Assembly (NCBI GenBank): GCA_964420065.1
Contig: CAYQQK010000007.1
Coordinates: 5,462-69,461, forward strand
Origin: an uncultured Syntrophomonadaceae bacterium
GTDB taxonomy: Bacteria; Bacillota; Dethiobacteria; DTU022
DNA: 64,000 bases
Direction of reading: 5' to 3'
Numbering within the stretch: position 1 is the first letter of the stretch; every line of letters starts with the position of its first letter. The notes beneath the pieces are model-generated. The model was given only the letters and a program-made list of their open reading frames with translations, ran no database searches and was not told the DNA's origin. The position numbers and the translations under genes are program-made. Below are positions 9,172 to 15,173 of this stretch, piece by piece.

Positions 9172-11189
9172 ACTGGAACCCGCTTGGCTGCGGTTCCTTG
9201 CACGACAATGAACCCGATTATCCGGGTGACCTGGTTCCCCGTTTGAAACCGTTCGATCTAGATCGCGGCGATCTCTACCTGGCCTGGGAGCTGACCCGCC
9301 TCGCCGGCACGGCCCTGAAACCGGCGCAGGTCCGGGCGGTAATTTTGCTGGTACTGGTGCTTCGCCTGCTGGCCGCCGAGGGAAGCACACGCCTGCCGCT
9401 TGTCCCCGGCGGAGTGCTTGCAGAGATCCTTGCCGCATTTCCGATCACCGTGGAGGAAAGGGCCGCGATAGAAGAGCTGTTCACAGCGCTCCGGCAGGGA
9501 GCCGGACCGGCCGATCTGTTCGGCGGGCCGGAAGATTACCGACCATTGATCATCGATCAAGGTTATCTCTATATCCAAAAACTGCATGTTTTGGAGGCCC
9601 GTGTTGGTCGGGCGCTGCAGGCACGTATTGCCGATGACGCAGCGGATGGGCAATCGGAGCAGGACTTTGAAGGGGCTTTGCAAGAGGTGTGCGATAATCC
9701 GCCCGAAAGTGAAGCGGGGCGCTTTGAACTGGATCCCGAACAAATTGAAGCGGTCCGAACGGCATTGTGCGGTCGGATTGCCATTGTCAGCGGGCAGCCG
9801 GGGAGCGGTAAAACATCCATTGTCGCCGCCCTGCTCCGGGTGTTGGCCCGGGTGGGACGCCCGCCGCTGGAAGCGATCGCGCTTACGGCGCCGACCGGAA
9901 AAGCCGCCGACCGGATGCGCCGGGCTATCACCGGGCATCTGGACGCCATCCCCGTTCTCGCCCCGGCCGACCGCCGGCTGGCCGAAGCCGGCCCGCCGGC
10001 CTTGACCCTGCATCGTTTGCTGGACTATTCGCCCGGCCGGGACTGTTTTTGTTATGATCAGGACAACCCGCTTTCGGAGCAACTGATTATCGTCGACGAA
10101 AGTTCGATGCTCGACCTGGCGATGACCGATCACCTGCTGCGCGCCCTGCAACCGGCCGCACGGGTAATTTTTTTGGGCGATGCCGATCAGTTGCCCCCGA
10201 TCGGAACCGGTGCGGTTTTGAGGGATCTGTGCCGTTCAGAAGCGGCCGCCCGGCGCAGCCGGGCGGTGGTGTTGCAAAAGAGCTATCGCGCCCGGAAGGA
10301 GGATCCCGGCGGCAAGATGATCCTCGACGCCGCTACGGCGATCAATGCCGGCCGGATGCCGCTTGGCACCGCTGACGGTTGCGCGCCGCCGTGTCGGAAA
10401 GCCGGTTCGCTGCGGTTTACCGGGGTCGAGCATCTTGAGGTGGATGCACCGGCGGAGCTGGCGGCATTTCTAGTGCGGTGGCACGAATTCTTCCACCACG
10501 CCCTCCCCGGGCTAGGCGCGTGCCTGCACCGTGAATATTTTTCGGGTCCGGAAGGTTTTGATGCTGAAACCAGCGCCGCCCTGCGGATTGTCATGGAACA
10601 TTACGAGAAGTTTCGCCTCCTCTGTGTGACCCGGGTTAGCGCCGGCGGAACCGGATCGGAAGCCGTCAACGCCTGGTTTCGCCGTTACCGGCGTGAAGAA
10701 ACGAAAGCTGCGAGCCGGACCGCCGCCCCGAATTTCTTATTTCCGGTCGGTGAGCCGGTCTTGGTCACGCAAAATGATTACCGGCTTCGCCTTTTCAACG
10801 GCGACTCGGGCCTGGTGCTGACGGTGAGGGCGTCAACTGAAACCGGGCCCGGAGACGCGGTTTCCATGGCTGTATTTGCCCGGGGCGGCGGCTATGTCGC
10901 CTATTCCCCGGAGGCGCTGCGCGGTAAATTGGAGCCGGCCTGGGCGACGACCGTGCACAAAGCGCAGGGTTCGGAATATGATCATGTGGCCATATTATTA
11001 CCCGGGGTACCGGTGCGGCCGTTAACGCGCGAGTTGCTTTACACGGCCGTCACCCGCGCCAGGAAGTCGGTTGTTTTTGTCGGCACGTACGGGATGATCA
11101 GGGCTGGCATAAAGGCGAAAACGGAACGCTTTTCCGGCCTGGCCGGCATGCTCTGCCAGGCTGGCTGCGCCGGTGAAAAAAAACCTTGA
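9156..11189 (+). CDS. recD: Exodeoxyribonuclease V subunit alpha (RecD)
   Basis: GQPGSGKT, APTGKAADR, TLHRLL, IVDESSMLD, LGDADQLPPI, ATTVHKAQGSEY, LYTAVTRAR; GTG 9156 after AGGAGG (9141-9146). Confidence 0.9.
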   Translation: MQANLNWNPLGCGSLHDNEPDYPGDLVPRLKPFDLDRGDLYLAWELTRLAGTALKPAQVRAVILLVLVLRLLAAEGSTRLPLVPGGVLAEILAAFPITVEERAAIEELFTALRQGAGPADLFGGPEDYRPLIIDQGYLYIQKLHVLEARVGRALQARIADDAADGQSEQDFEGALQEVCDNPPESEAGRFELDPEQIEAVRTALCGRIAIVSGQPGSGKTSIVAALLRVLARVGRPPLEAIALTAPTGKAADRMRRAITGHLDAIPVLAPADRRLAEAGPPALTLHRLLDYSPGRDCFCYDQDNPLSEQLIIVDESSMLDLAMTDHLLRALQPAARVIFLGDADQLPPIGTGAVLRDLCRSEAAARRSRAVVLQKSYRARKEDPGGKMILDAATAINAGRMPLGTADGCAPPCRKAGSLRFTGVEHLEVDAPAELAAFLVRWHEFFHHALPGLGACLHREYFSGPEGFDAETSAALRIVMEHYEKFRLLCVTRVSAGGTGSEAVNAWFRRYRREETKAASRTAAPNFLFPVGEPVLVTQNDYRLRLFNGDSGLVLTVRASTETGPGDAVSMAVFARGGGYVAYSPEALRGKLEPAWATTVHKAQGSEYDHVAILLPGVPVRPLTRELLYTAVTRARKSVVFVGTYGMIRAGIKAKTERFSGLAGMLCQAGCAGEKKP

Positions 11190-11213
11190 CAAACGCTTTT
11201 TTTGGTTTATAAA
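11186..11213 (+). promoter_or_regulatory. Putative sigmaA promoter for the ATP-grasp/kamA pair
   Basis: TTGACA (11186-11191), 16 nt, TATAAA (11208-11213). Confidence 0.5.
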
Positions 11214-11318
11214 TAGAGAATAAACAGGTTGTAAAAAACAAAGCCAAAGCGTAACCATACCCAAGGCGACACCCGGGAGTTGCGGGCGAGGGGCCTGGAA
11301 AAATGAGGCGATCACTGG

Positions 11319-12416
11319 ATGAGAGTGGCCCTGCTGTACAGCTCCAAAATAGGCATGAAAGCGGCTTTGTTGCGCCGTCGGGAGAAAGTTGCGGACGAAG
11401 ACAGCGAACCCCCGCCCGACCTGCTGGCCGAGTGTGACAACGACGCTACGATCGCGGCTGTCGGGCGGGTTCTTGAAGAACAACACCGGGTCTACTATAT
11501 CGAATCCGATGAACGGGCCTATACCCGCTTGCGACGGCTTTGCCCGGATCTCGTCTTCAACATTTCCGAACGCCTTTTTGGACCAAACCGCGAATCACAT
11601 ATTCCTACCATCTGCGAAATTCTTGGGTTACCTTACACCGGTTCCGACCCCCTGACTTTGGGTATTTGCCTGGATAAATCCCGGGCCAAGGAAATTCTGA
11701 GCCATTACGGTATCCCCAACCCGTCGTTTACCGTGGTCGAGGACCCGGCCTACGTTCCGGCCCACTTTCCGTTGCCGGCTATCGTCAAGCCGCTTTACGA
11801 AGGATCGAGCAAGGGGATCACGAACGATTCCGTCGTTCGTTCGTGGGAAGCACTGCTTGACAAAACTGCAGCCACCATCCGGGCATACCGGCAACCGGTG
11901 ATCATTGAACGGTTTTTTTCCGGAAGAGAATTTACAGCCGGTGTTCTGGGCAACTATCCGGATTATGAGATCCTGCCGGTTGTCGAAATTGACTACAGCG
12001 GGCTTCCGACCGGGGTTGAGCCGGTCTACTCCTACGAGGCGAAATGGATCTGGGATACACCCGACCGGCCCCTTGAAATTTTCCGGTGCCCCGCAGTCGT
12101 AACGGACCGGCTTGAGAAAAAGATCCGTGAAGTCGTGCGTCGGACGTGCACCCTGCTGCGAATCAGGGACTGGTGCCGCGTCGATCTCCGGCTTGACCAT
12201 GCCGGTGATCCGAATGTGCTCGAGGTCAATCCTTTACCGGGTATTTTACCCCGTCCGGAGGATAATTCCTGCCTTCCCAAGGCCGCCGCTGCGGCCGGTT
12301 ATACCTACCGGGATCTCATCTGCCGGGTGGTGGACGAGGCGATGAAACGTTGTGGAGAACGACAGGCTGCAGAACGAACCTGGACCGCCATGCTTGTTAC
12401 AGGCCGGGCAAAATGA
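11319..12416 (+). CDS. D-Ala-D-Ala-ligase-like ATP-grasp peptide ligase of unknown substrate
   Basis: PYTGSD...LDK, IVKPLYEGSSKGI, ERFFSGREFT, YSYEAK, RVDLR, LEVNPLPG; lacks the Ddl N-terminal GGxSxEH motif. Confidence 0.85.
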   Translation: MRVALLYSSKIGMKAALLRRREKVADEDSEPPPDLLAECDNDATIAAVGRVLEEQHRVYYIESDERAYTRLRRLCPDLVFNISERLFGPNRESHIPTICEILGLPYTGSDPLTLGICLDKSRAKEILSHYGIPNPSFTVVEDPAYVPAHFPLPAIVKPLYEGSSKGITNDSVVRSWEALLDKTAATIRAYRQPVIIERFFSGREFTAGVLGNYPDYEILPVVEIDYSGLPTGVEPVYSYEAKWIWDTPDRPLEIFRCPAVVTDRLEKKIREVVRRTCTLLRIRDWCRVDLRLDHAGDPNVLEVNPLPGILPRPEDNSCLPKAAAAAGYTYRDLICRVVDEAMKRCGERQAAERTWTAMLVTGRAK

Positions 12417-12517
12417 GACGGAAGGGTCGTTGCCGCATCGCATCCAGTTTAACCGGTACCCGGGGTGGGGCCGATCCCTGAACCCAGTACTTTCTGGTCA
12501 AAAGGAGTAGGGAAGAA

Positions 12518-13633
12518 ATGGATGACTGGCAGAAGTTACTGCGGGGTTGTCTGCGGAAACCCGAAGCAATTGCCTTGCGTTTCGGACTTGAAGTTGACGA
12601 GGTGCGTCGGATTACGGCTGTATTCAGGGCCGGTATTTCACCGTACTACGCCGCTTTGATCAAAGCCAAGGACGATCCGATCTGGCGGCAGGTAGTGCCG
12701 GACCCGGCCGAGTTGCACGCATGTTCCGGCGAAGCCGATCCTCTTTCTGAAGATGAGGATTCGCCGGTACCGGGTATCGTGCACCGTTATCCCGACCGGG
12801 TTTTATTCATGGTGTCGCACAGTTGTGCTTCCTATTGCCGGTTTTGCACCCGGAAAAGGAAAGTCGGCGATCCGTCGAAGGTGCATCTCCGCGACATTGA
12901 AGCGGGGATCGGTTACATCAAAAGTCATAAAGAAATACGCGATGTTTTGCTTTCGGGCGGTGATCCGCTCATGTTAAGCAACGCCAAAATTGAGCGAATT
13001 CTGATCAGCCTGCGTTCCATACCCCATGTTGAAATTATCCGGATTGGCACACGTATGCCCTGCTTTTTGCCGCACCGGATTACTGAAAAACTGGCCGCGA
13101 TACTCAAAAAGTACCACCCGCTCTATGTAAACGTTCATTTCAACCATCCGGATGAAATCACGCCCGCTTCCGCCCGGGCGCTCAACCTGCTGGCCGATTC
13201 CGGCATCCCCCTCGGCAACCAGACCGTCCTGCTCAAGGGGGTCAACGATGATCCGCCGGTAATGCGCCGGCTCATGCAAAAACTGCTGACAGTCAGGGTG
13301 AAGCCGTATTATATTTACCAGGCCGATCACGTCGCCGGGACGGAACATCTGCGCACGACCGTGGAGAAAGGGATCGCGATCATGGAAAATTTACGCGGCT
13401 GGACATCGGGCCTGGCTGTGCCGCATTACTGCATCGATGCGCCCGGGGGGGGCGGCAAGATTCCTCTTCTGCCGCAGTATGTCCAATCGATCGATCATGA
13501 AAAAGTGATTTTGCGCAATTATGCCGGAGATACTTTCACCTATCCTCAGGTGCGCCGCCGCCCGGAACCGGCGTGGCGAAACCGACCCGGGGCCTGCATC
13601 ATGACGGAGCAGCCGGCCCCCCGGCAGGCCTGA
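12518..13633 (+). CDS. kamA: KamA-family radical SAM/PLP enzyme (lysine 2,3-aminomutase-like)
   Basis: HRYPDR, CASYCRFCTRK (CxxxCxxC), LLSGGDPL, NQTVLLKGVND, YIYQAD, IDAPGGGGKIP (PLP lysine). Confidence 0.9.
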   Translation: MDDWQKLLRGCLRKPEAIALRFGLEVDEVRRITAVFRAGISPYYAALIKAKDDPIWRQVVPDPAELHACSGEADPLSEDEDSPVPGIVHRYPDRVLFMVSHSCASYCRFCTRKRKVGDPSKVHLRDIEAGIGYIKSHKEIRDVLLSGGDPLMLSNAKIERILISLRSIPHVEIIRIGTRMPCFLPHRITEKLAAILKKYHPLYVNVHFNHPDEITPASARALNLLADSGIPLGNQTVLLKGVNDDPPVMRRLMQKLLTVRVKPYYIYQADHVAGTEHLRTTVEKGIAIMENLRGWTSGLAVPHYCIDAPGGGGKIPLLPQYVQSIDHEKVILRNYAGDTFTYPQVRRRPEPAWRNRPGACIMTEQPAPRQA

Positions 13634-13668
13634 AGGCGAGGGTTCCGCCTTTTAATTCCTGCAATCCG

Positions 13669-13698
13669 AAGCTCGGACCTAAGACATCCGGGCTTTTT
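13669..13698 (+). terminator. Rho-independent terminator after kamA
   Basis: Stem AAGCTCGGA / TCCGGGCTT (one G-U pair), 9-nt loop, followed by a T run. Confidence 0.6.
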
Positions 13699-13829
13699 CA
13701 TGCTTCCGTCCCGGTTCAAACTTGATCGGATCATGCGCGGTACGTTATTCTGAATATGGTTTCGCCGGAAAAAGGAAACAGGTACAATTTGTAACGGCGT
13801 TTTTTTGTAAACGGAGGGAGACCGAAAAG

Positions 13830-15173
13830 GTGAGACTGGATCTGGTGTTAAAGAACGGTATTGTTGTCTCCCCGGGACGCAACGTGCAAATAGATATCGC
13901 GGTTAAAGAGGGCAAGATCGTCGCCCTGGGCCGGTCGGAAGAATTTTGTGACGCCGCCCAAACGCTTGATGTGACGGGGAAATATATTCTGCCCGGTGTT
14001 ATCGATGTGCACTGCCACTTTCGCGACCCGGGGTTAACGCACAAAGAAGATTTTTTGAGCGGCACCCGCGCCGCGGCCATGGGTGGAGTGACCACGGTCT
14101 TTGATATGCCCAACACGATCCCCCCGGTTACAAACTTGATCGCGCTGCACCAAAAAATGAAGGCAATCAAAAATCGGGCGTATGTTGATTATTGCTTATG
14201 GGGTGCGGTGACGAGCAACGACCCGGTACAAATTGATAATCTGGCCGGCCTGGGTGTTATCGGTTTCAAGATATTTCTGGCCCAAACCACTGGAGACCTG
14301 GCCGCCCCCGGTGACGGGGCTCTTCTGGAGGTGTTTGGGCGTATTCGGGCAACCGGTTTAAGGGCTGCTCTCCACGCTGAGGACGAAGGTTATATCAATT
14401 ATTTTACCCGTAAATTTCAAAAAGAAGGGTGCCGGAATTACGAAGCCGTGGAAACGGCGCGGGATGCGACGGCGGAAGCGCTGGCCATTGCTCGCGTGCT
14501 GGTTTTAGCGCACCGGTCCGGCAACAAGATCCATATTGCCCACCTGAGCACCCGCGAAGGAGCTGAACTGGTCAAACTGGCCCGCGAGAAGGGGATCGAT
14601 GTCAGCGCCGAGACCTGCCCGCAGTACCTGCTTTTAAAAAATGATGATTATGCGCGCCTGGGGCAGGTGGCGAAAATGTTTCCCCCGTTGCGCCGGGCCG
14701 GCGATATGGAGGCCCTTTGGGCGGCGATTGCCGATGGTGTGGTCGAGGTTATCGCTTCGGATCATGCGCCGCACACCCGGCAGGAAAAACTTGGCACCGT
14801 AGATATCTGGGATGTTCCGGCCGGCATGATCGGCGTCGAAACGAGCGTGCCCCTGATGCTCGAACAGGTAAACCGGGGGCGGTTGACCCTGAACGAGTAT
14901 GTACGCATTGCTTGTGAAAAACCGGCCCGGTTGTTCAACCTTTATCCCCGTAAAGGGACGATCGGGGCCGGCGCCGATGCTGATTTTACCATAATCGATC
15001 TCAACCAAACGTATGAAATTAAAGCGACCCGCCTTCACTCCAAGTCCAGGTTCACACCCTTTGAGGGTATAACAGGCAAAGGTTTCCCGGTCTATACGAT
15101 TGTCAGAGGCAACGTGGTGATGGCACATGGGCGGCTGCTTACCGAGCCGTCCGGCCTTTTCGTCAGCCCGTAA
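13830..15173 (+). CDS. Cyclic amidohydrolase, dihydroorotase/allantoinase family
   Basis: PGVIDVHCHFRDPG, AAMGGVTTVFDMPNT, GFKIFL (carbamylated Lys position), HAED, HIAHLST, ETCPQYL, ASDHAPH; GTG 13830 after GGAGGGA. Confidence 0.8.
   Translation: MRLDLVLKNGIVVSPGRNVQIDIAVKEGKIVALGRSEEFCDAAQTLDVTGKYILPGVIDVHCHFRDPGLTHKEDFLSGTRAAAMGGVTTVFDMPNTIPPVTNLIALHQKMKAIKNRAYVDYCLWGAVTSNDPVQIDNLAGLGVIGFKIFLAQTTGDLAAPGDGALLEVFGRIRATGLRAALHAEDEGYINYFTRKFQKEGCRNYEAVETARDATAEALAIARVLVLAHRSGNKIHIAHLSTREGAELVKLAREKGIDVSAETCPQYLLLKNDDYARLGQVAKMFPPLRRAGDMEALWAAIADGVVEVIASDHAPHTRQEKLGTVDIWDVPAGMIGVETSVPLMLEQVNRGRLTLNEYVRIACEKPARLFNLYPRKGTIGAGADADFTIIDLNQTYEIKATRLHSKSRFTPFEGITGKGFPVYTIVRGNVVMAHGRLLTEPSGLFVSP

Follow-up and report, generated by a model that had tools for sequence, protein, structure and literature searches.

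Positions 11,319 to 13,633 of a 64,000-nt stretch of contig CAYQQK010000007.1 (the window, as we call the whole stretch) encode a ligase with the fold of D-alanine–D-alanine ligase (Ddl), designated AG1, and a KamA-family aminomutase of the radical S-adenosylmethionine (SAM), pyridoxal 5′-phosphate (PLP) type. The general mechanism that we regard as probable is one in which KamA would make β-lysine and AG1, by ligation, would build this into a small cationic amide. The two genes appear to be a reduced version of a cassette, AG1-AG2-GNAT-KamA, that is widespread and uncharacterized, in which AG2 is a second, paralogous ligase and GNAT a 157-aa protein of the family of that name. A preliminary description of this DNA, made from the sequence without database searches, had named the unit as KamA followed by the ligase; it placed both genes correctly, but the ligase comes first and the aminomutase second, both as plus-strand open reading frames (ORFs):

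11319..12416, + strand: AG1, Ddl-fold ATP-grasp ligase of 365 aa, not a Ddl (match to PF07478)
12518..13633, + strand: KamA-family radical-SAM/PLP aminomutase of 371 aa, predicted lysine 2,3-aminomutase (alignment with 2A5H)

KamA retains the catalytic and lysine-specifying residues of lysine 2,3-aminomutases

The window KamA contains the Pfam domains Radical_SAM and LAM_C, and its only relative of solved structure is the lysine 2,3-aminomutase (LAM) of Clostridium subterminale (2A5H; E = 5.5e-112). In the alignment with 2A5H all catalytic and lysine-specifying residues are kept, covering those for the iron–sulfur cluster, PLP, the lysine carboxylate, and the ε-amine: the CxxxCxxC cluster motif (C103, C107, and C110), R112 (Arg134 of 2A5H), D270 within YIYQAD (Asp293), D307 within IDAPGGGGK (Asp330), and the PLP lysine K314 (lysine 337). 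Both lysine-binding aspartates are replaced in the known glutamate 2,3-aminomutases, and the lysine-type pair that the preliminary description had read from the motifs YQAD and IDAPGG is borne out by the alignment. Among the KamA proteins of the cassettes, a motif search found Asp at the position of Asp293 in 37 of 41, and the position of Asp330 is Asp in all 41. The generic KamA family model TIGR00238 (288.6, cut-off 199.2) is the sole NCBIfam model passed by the window protein, which does not reach the models for glutamate 2,3-aminomutase (427, cut-off 650), arginine 2,3-aminomutase (343, cut-off 600), or EpmB (225.7, cut-off 369.3).

Three other KamA-family proteins (P0165, P0221, and P0243; 563–578 aa) are longer by approximately 200 residues and match LAM_C twice, at separate places, and so seem to have arisen by an insertion within the protein or by duplication of a part of it, not by fusion to a ligase. 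A KamA 81% identical to that of the window (P0232) was discarded, as it comes from a frameshifted long-read Aminicenantes assembly.

AG1 is an ATP-grasp ligase with altered substrate sites

AG1 is assigned to the ATP-grasp superfamily by its match to Pfam Dala_Dala_lig_C (PF07478; 108 bits, cut-off 24) and by its intact ATP, Mg, and catalytic residues. Its PDB matches are exclusively Ddl or Van ligases (best E = 2e-25), and HHalign aligns it to Escherichia coli DdlB with a probability of 100% and 32% identity; residues 46–303 of the DdlB sequence used agree with the PDB alignment. However, AG1 scores below the cut-offs of all curated NCBIfam Ddl models (TIGR01205, 130.2 vs. 245.65; NF002378, 162.2 vs. 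243). Residue conservation was counted over 64 AG1 family members, in which the equivalents of DdlB K97, K144, EGSS, E180, K215, R255, D257, E270, and N272 are invariant. The N-terminal MRVALL of AG1 is in register with the other N-termini of the family in the alignment. The GGxSxE(R/H)EVS motif that contains Glu15 of Ddl is missing, and the first strand is followed by an insertion of approximately 24 residues and then by an invariant AExD, which may place an acidic residue near the position of Glu15.

The remaining substrate-site changes are almost as uniform: His63 is replaced by Glu in 63 of the 64 members, Tyr216 of the omega loop (D-Ala1 site) by Trp in 63, and Leu282 by Cys in 62, and a four-residue, mostly acidic insertion lies ahead of the conserved Ser281 equivalent. 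In or close to each of the two substrate sites of Ddl, AG1 has acidic residues (E38, D40, E84, and E92, which are invariant, and E314/D315, which are mostly kept), an enrichment that would fit a polycationic substrate. The absence of the Ddl GGxSxEH site and the unusual N-terminus, both remarked on in the preliminary description, are thus confirmed, and with every Ddl cut-off missed and both substrate sites altered its view that the ligase is not a Ddl is upheld. AG1 is most likely not a D-Ala-D-Ala ligase, and its product most likely not cell-wall D-Ala-D-Ala.

The pairing is conserved in a four-gene cassette

Homologs of AG1 number in the thousands at 60–77% identity, nearly all of them from metagenome-assembled genomes. 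Contig look-ups together with a scan of one genome per species yielded 73 loci, on which AG1, AG2, the GNAT, and KamA were mapped by tblastn; L080 (28% identical) is excluded from the counts, which leaves 72 with a good AG1 match. In the canonical arrangement the genes are closely spaced in the order AG1-AG2-GNAT-KamA. A single cluster contains both AG1 and KamA in 49 of these 72, from phyla that include Aminicenantes, Ignavibacteria, Bacteroidota, Gemmatimonadota, Calditrichia, Zhuqueibacterota, Rokubacteria, and Bathyarchaeia, and many of the loci without such a cluster are truncated by contig ends. The objection that the pairing might not be conserved, which the preliminary description had anticipated, therefore fails.

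The window and its closest relative, L003, depart from this pattern in encoding AG1 and KamA only, and in these two alone is AG1 directly followed by KamA; in canonical loci AG2 and the GNAT occupy the position of the AG1/KamA spacer of the window. Queries with the cassette GNAT and AG2 found no match by tblastn anywhere in the 64 kb of the window. The cassette GNAT itself matches no AblB model, its best match being RimI at 44 bits, below the cut-off. Full-text searches of a paper library on ATP-grasp enzymes with β-lysine, KamA, or aminomutase found no description of such a system and returned only unrelated reviews and natural-product papers.

In two loci (L013:9679-10650 and L002:11774-12718) the cassette has an IS200-type Y1 transposase on its KamA side, and in the first of these the transposase takes the place of KamA, leaving AG1-AG2-GNAT. 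The Aminicenantes neighbors queCDEF, a CitMHS-type transporter, a 270-aa protein, and a SIS-domain protein were considered as further members and rejected as lineage-specific synteny, being unseen in other phyla.

A further arrangement occurs in uncultured Deltaproteobacteria, where a third, RimK-like ligase and a methyltransferase are often present at loci that have no KamA within 7 kb. At L035:3959-10254 the order is SpeY (deoxyhypusine synthase [DHS]-like), agmatinase (in some loci), pyruvoyl arginine decarboxylase, RimK-like ATP-grasp, AG1, AG2, GNAT, and class I methyltransferase. The same arrangement, without KamA within 7 kb, is found in L033, L036-L038, L040, L042, L046, L056, L074, L075, and L078.

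All natural fusions identified join KamA to an AG1-type domain

With an artificial KamA+AG1 concatenation as the query we identified 33 natural KamA/ATP-grasp fusion proteins of 657–875 aa, four in the domain order AG1-KamA and the rest KamA-AG1. The grasp domain is of the AG1 type in all 33 and of the AG2 type in none: the 26 closest fusions score 325–379 bits to AG1 vs. 207–247 to AG2, and the seven more distant ones 201–280 vs. 140–190. Both lysine-specifying aspartates are kept in the fusions examined. One contig, L084, carries a KamA-AG1 fusion with neither AG2 nor GNAT within 6 kb, and this fusion, in a protein named by the National Center for Biotechnology Information (NCBI) as Woesearchaeota, is apparently a second, independent minimal system. 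The minimal two-gene form and the AG1-only fusions together identify AG1 as the likely core ligase and the direct partner that would handle the KamA product. That the two genes work together, as the preliminary description had supposed, is thus supported both by their association over many phyla and by fusion, in either domain order, exclusively to AG1-type ligases.

Several of the fusions carry the NCBI names Woesearchaeota or Thermoplasmatota. These archaea are not known to have murein, which argues against a D-Ala-D-Ala or cell-wall role and weakens the cell-wall modification that had been among the product roles first proposed for the pair.

At L084:6001-11271 a SET-domain gene overlaps the fusion gene, and after it come genes for a LysA/FslC-like PLP decarboxylase (178 bits, below all cut-offs) and for a protein of 442 aa that matches MurL faintly. 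At L086:8314-10440 an AG1-KamA fusion is met, immediately downstream and convergently on the opposite strand, by GNAT, AG2, and an Rv0495c-family (PF11307) protein.

The pair was probably acquired horizontally and is under purifying selection

The window and L003 share the synteny recC-recB-recD, with AG1 77–79% and KamA 88% identical; in L003 the AG1 and KamA genes overlap, and the junction differs from that of the window by indels. In an AG1 tree rooted on AG2, both sequences are found deep within the Aminicenantes clade of the cassette, which suggests that the pair is a derived, reduced member. The named relatives of the flanking RecD, by comparison, belong to uncultured Bacillota, Dethiobacteria among them (53–56% identity), and the host looks like an uncultured member of the Bacillota. 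In the next RecD relative (63% identity, Bacillota), recD is followed by a TPR protein and the cassette genes are absent. These observations fit a cassette that was acquired horizontally, its donor being Aminicenantes-like, and that was reduced by losing AG2 and the GNAT, a point that goes beyond the preliminary description.

Between the window and L003, at a synonymous divergence (dS) of approximately 1.1–1.2, the ratio of nonsynonymous to synonymous substitution rates (dN/dS) is 0.11 for AG1 and 0.06 for KamA (over the first 187 codons, those available). Both genes are under strong purifying selection, and the reduced form is most likely not decaying.

Four loci labeled "uncultured Eubacteriales" (L008, L013, L024, and L027) have AG1 genes, flanking synteny, and AG1-tree positions of the Aminicenantes type, and their taxonomic labels may be wrong.

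Proposed pathway and points against it

We propose that a two-gene operon, derived from the four-gene cassette by loss of AG2 and the GNAT, would have moved from an Aminicenantes-like donor into an uncultured member of the Bacillota. In the first step, predicted from family membership and conserved residues, KamA would turn L-lysine into β-lysine (3,6-diaminohexanoate) with the help of SAM, a [4Fe-4S] cluster, and PLP. In the second, for which the linkage and fusion of the genes and the intactness of the catalytic residues argue, AG1 would form an acyl phosphate with ATP and then an amide bond, β-lysine being at least one of the two substrates. The product would be a small cationic β-lysine amide, for example, a β-lysyl dipeptide, an isopeptide, or β-lysine coupled to some other amine or amino acid. 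No second ligation or acetylation is encoded in cis beside the pair. A role as a stress or compatible solute or as a polyamine-like cation seems most plausible.

Several observations weigh against this proposal. The AblA equivalog model TIGR03820 is not reached by the window KamA (465.3, cut-off 525.4), and the zinc site of the clostridial LAM, formed by Cys268 and a C-terminal Cys triad, is missing: Asp stands at the position of Cys268, and the LAM C-terminal domain is absent, the alignment stopping at LAM residue 367 (371 vs. 416 aa). The window enzyme could therefore act on another substrate or with another stereochemistry. Some dozen loci of Deltaproteobacteria have AG1-AG2-GNAT without KamA within 7 kb and with the same invariant AG1 residues, so AG1 may have a substrate other than β-lysine, or KamA may lie elsewhere in those genomes. 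The KamA+AG1 query was biased towards AG1-type fusions, although fusions of the AG2 type should still have outranked single-domain matches. Finally, AG2 and the GNAT might be encoded elsewhere in the host genome.

The fates known for β-lysine are fermentation, the osmolyte N-ε-acetyl-β-lysine, modification of elongation factor P (EF-P), and antibiotics made by nonribosomal peptide synthetases (NRPSs). An ATP-grasp route independent of both ribosome and NRPS would add a further one, encoded by genes that are common in uncultured anaerobes of sediments, groundwater, and bioreactors. The value of the window lies in a system stripped to two genes that are under purifying selection, which makes it the simplest co-expression construct for product discovery.

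Alternative explanations

A variant of the proposed pathway, which we consider unlikely though deserving of attention, is that AG1 joins β-lysine to a di- or polyamine such as putrescine, agmatine, or homospermidine; alternatively, an amino acid would be coupled to the amine end of a polyamine scaffold, giving an amide-type polyamine analog and no peptide. In Deltaproteobacteria, AG1-AG2-GNAT directly follows SpeY, agmatinase, and pyruvoyl arginine decarboxylase, a gene set that leads to homospermidine (PMC13625781), and in the Woesearchaeota-named locus L084 the LysA/FslC-like PLP decarboxylase stands after the KamA-AG1 fusion. These two associations with genes of the polyamine type, independent of each other, suggest that amide-linked polycations may be made, with ligation in either direction, but both could also be no more than synteny. 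For phevamine A, the coupling of amino acids to a polyamine by ATP-grasp ligases is reported (PMC6187163). Against this variant, no polyamine genes adjoin the pair in the window, and the adjacency in Deltaproteobacteria could be plain synteny, recJ, rimI, and pyrKD being conserved there as well. AG1 also keeps the equivalents of Arg255 and Ser281, residues that bind the carboxylate of the entering amino acid in Ddl.

It is improbable, in our estimate, that AG1 instead modifies a macromolecule, placing β-lysine on a lysine or carboxylate of a protein (of the EF-P/aIF5A type but EpmA-independent, or a ribosomal protein) or on an envelope polymer. In the EpmA/EpmB system the β-lysine made by a KamA homolog is used to modify EF-P, and some ATP-grasp enzymes, such as RimK, do modify proteins. 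The overlap of the archaeal fusion gene by a SET-domain gene points the same way, SET domains being typical of protein-lysine methyltransferases, as does the resemblance of the cassette GNAT to RimI, at 44 bits and below the cut-off. However, the gene tables inspected for individual loci contain no efp, aIF5A, or epmA gene, nor is one prominent among the recurring neighbor families; KamA falls far below the EpmB model (226 vs. 369), and AG1 is nearest to small-molecule ligases.

A bolder reading, to which we give little credence, is that AG1 represents a new ATP-grasp activity on KamA-made β-lysine, either homo-polymerization or attachment to a protein lysine (EF-P/aIF5A). The first would yield β-lysyl-β-lysine and longer polycations in the manner of a Ddl, without an NRPS, and the second would be an EpmA-independent β-lysylation common to bacteria and DPANN archaea; under either, the system would be complete, in its smallest form, in the window pair and in the archaeal fusion.

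That the pair is a decaying remnant, its pathway broken by the loss of AG2 and the GNAT and both remaining genes on their way out, is very unlikely. Two of the four cassette genes are indeed missing and the junction varies between the window and L003, but both ORFs are intact in two genomes at the synonymous divergence and dN/dS given above, all catalytic residues are kept, and an independent minimal KamA-AG1 system exists in the Woesearchaeota-named contig. Least credible of all is an AG1 that acts as an ordinary Ddl or cell-wall variant beside an unrelated KamA serving lysine fermentation or N-ε-acetyl-β-lysine synthesis: the best PDB and NCBIfam matches of AG1 are all Ddl/Van ligases, but it lies under every Ddl cut-off, lacks GGxSxE, has Tyr216 replaced by Trp, His63 by Glu, and Leu282 by Cys, has no mur or fts neighbors, is fused to KamA in archaeal-named proteins, and is missing together with KamA after recD in the next Bacillota relative, and neither kamDE nor a GNAT is nearby.

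Expression signals and gene neighborhood of the window pair

The preliminary description had credited the pair with its own promoter and terminator. Signals of both kinds can be read directly from the DNA, but neither was listed by a consensus scan:

11186..11213, + strand: promoter-like site, TTGACA-16 nt-TATAAA (direct sequence reading)
11305..11308, + strand: GAGG, putative ribosome-binding site, 10 nt 5′ of the AG1 start codon (sequence)
12417..12517, + strand: 101-nt AG1/KamA spacer, with AGGAG at 12503-12507, 10 nt 5′ of the KamA start (sequence)
13632..13698, + strand: two terminator-like hairpins, 13632-13652 and 13668-13696, the latter followed by a U-run (RNA fold)

The scan omits the promoter-like site because it accepts only T as the last base of the second hexamer, and the terminator-like hairpin because of its 9-nt loop. 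In this second hairpin after the KamA stop, a stem of 10 bp is followed by a U5 tail; the folding z-score of the hairpin region, −0.72, is unexceptional. Predicted promoter and terminator signals flanking the pair are plausible. The TTGACA hexamer (11186-11191) overlaps the TGA stop codon of recD (11187-11189), so the inserted unit would start immediately where recD ends. The AG1 5′ leader folds no better than shuffled sequences (z = 0.51), and neither it nor the AG1/KamA spacer matched a riboswitch or leader RNA in Rfam.

Within approximately 10 kb the neighbors are recCBD, a dihydroorotase/allantoinase-type amidohydrolase, a cpsB-like gene, galE, and PrpD. No kamDE-like gene or GNAT was found over the same distance, in agreement with the earlier remark that kamDE and ablB are absent from the vicinity. 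Among the window neighbors there are no mur or fts genes near AG1 and no efp or epmA near the pair, and AG1 is the only Ddl-like match in the 64 kb. The locus was present in four bioreactor DNA metagenomes only and in no RNA runs.

The amidohydrolase gene downstream (13722-15173) was rejected as a third member of the unit: the hairpins intervene, it does not accompany the cassette elsewhere, and it is of the dihydroorotase/allantoinase type. It scores 372 vs. 279 with the multi-family dihydroorotase model and 358.8 with the allantoinase model (cut-off 357.85). Translation probably begins further downstream than the TTG at 13722, since the model matches begin at residue 38–45.

Comparison with known systems

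The nearest parallel on the aminomutase side is AblA/AblB of methanogens (kamA-yodP in Bacillus), in which a KamA-family aminomutase likewise feeds β-lysine to a dedicated enzyme encoded beside it, and AblA is the best-scoring model for the window KamA. In the window, however, the partner is an ATP-grasp ligase rather than an acetyltransferase, and no GNAT is present; the cassette GNAT of the relatives fits no AblB model, and the window KamA neither reaches the AblA cut-off nor has the C-terminal domain. EpmB/EpmA offers a second parallel, in that a short KamA homolog without the LAM C-terminal domain makes β-lysine and its partner activates with ATP and forms an amide. EpmA, unlike the ATP-grasp partner in the window, is a paralog of lysyl-tRNA synthetase, and in the window the EpmB model is not reached and efp and epmA are not nearby.

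On the ligase side, AG1 shares with E. coli DdlB (PDB 2DLN/1IOV) the fold and the ATP-grasp catalytic residues but differs from it in the missing GGxSxE, the N-terminal insertion of approximately 24 residues, the changed substrate-site residues, the acidic four-residue insertion, and the fusions to KamA. Carnosine synthase, which makes β-alanyl-histidine, and the L-amino-acid ligases resemble AG1 in the amide joining of a (β-)amino acid to an amine by an ATP-grasp enzyme, with neither ribosome nor NRPS, a likeness to small-molecule ligases that is drawn from reaction type. The full cassette, with AG1 and AG2, recalls HsvB and HsvC of phevamine biosynthesis, which are reported to be two ATP-grasp ligases that act in series on a polyamine (PMC6187163).

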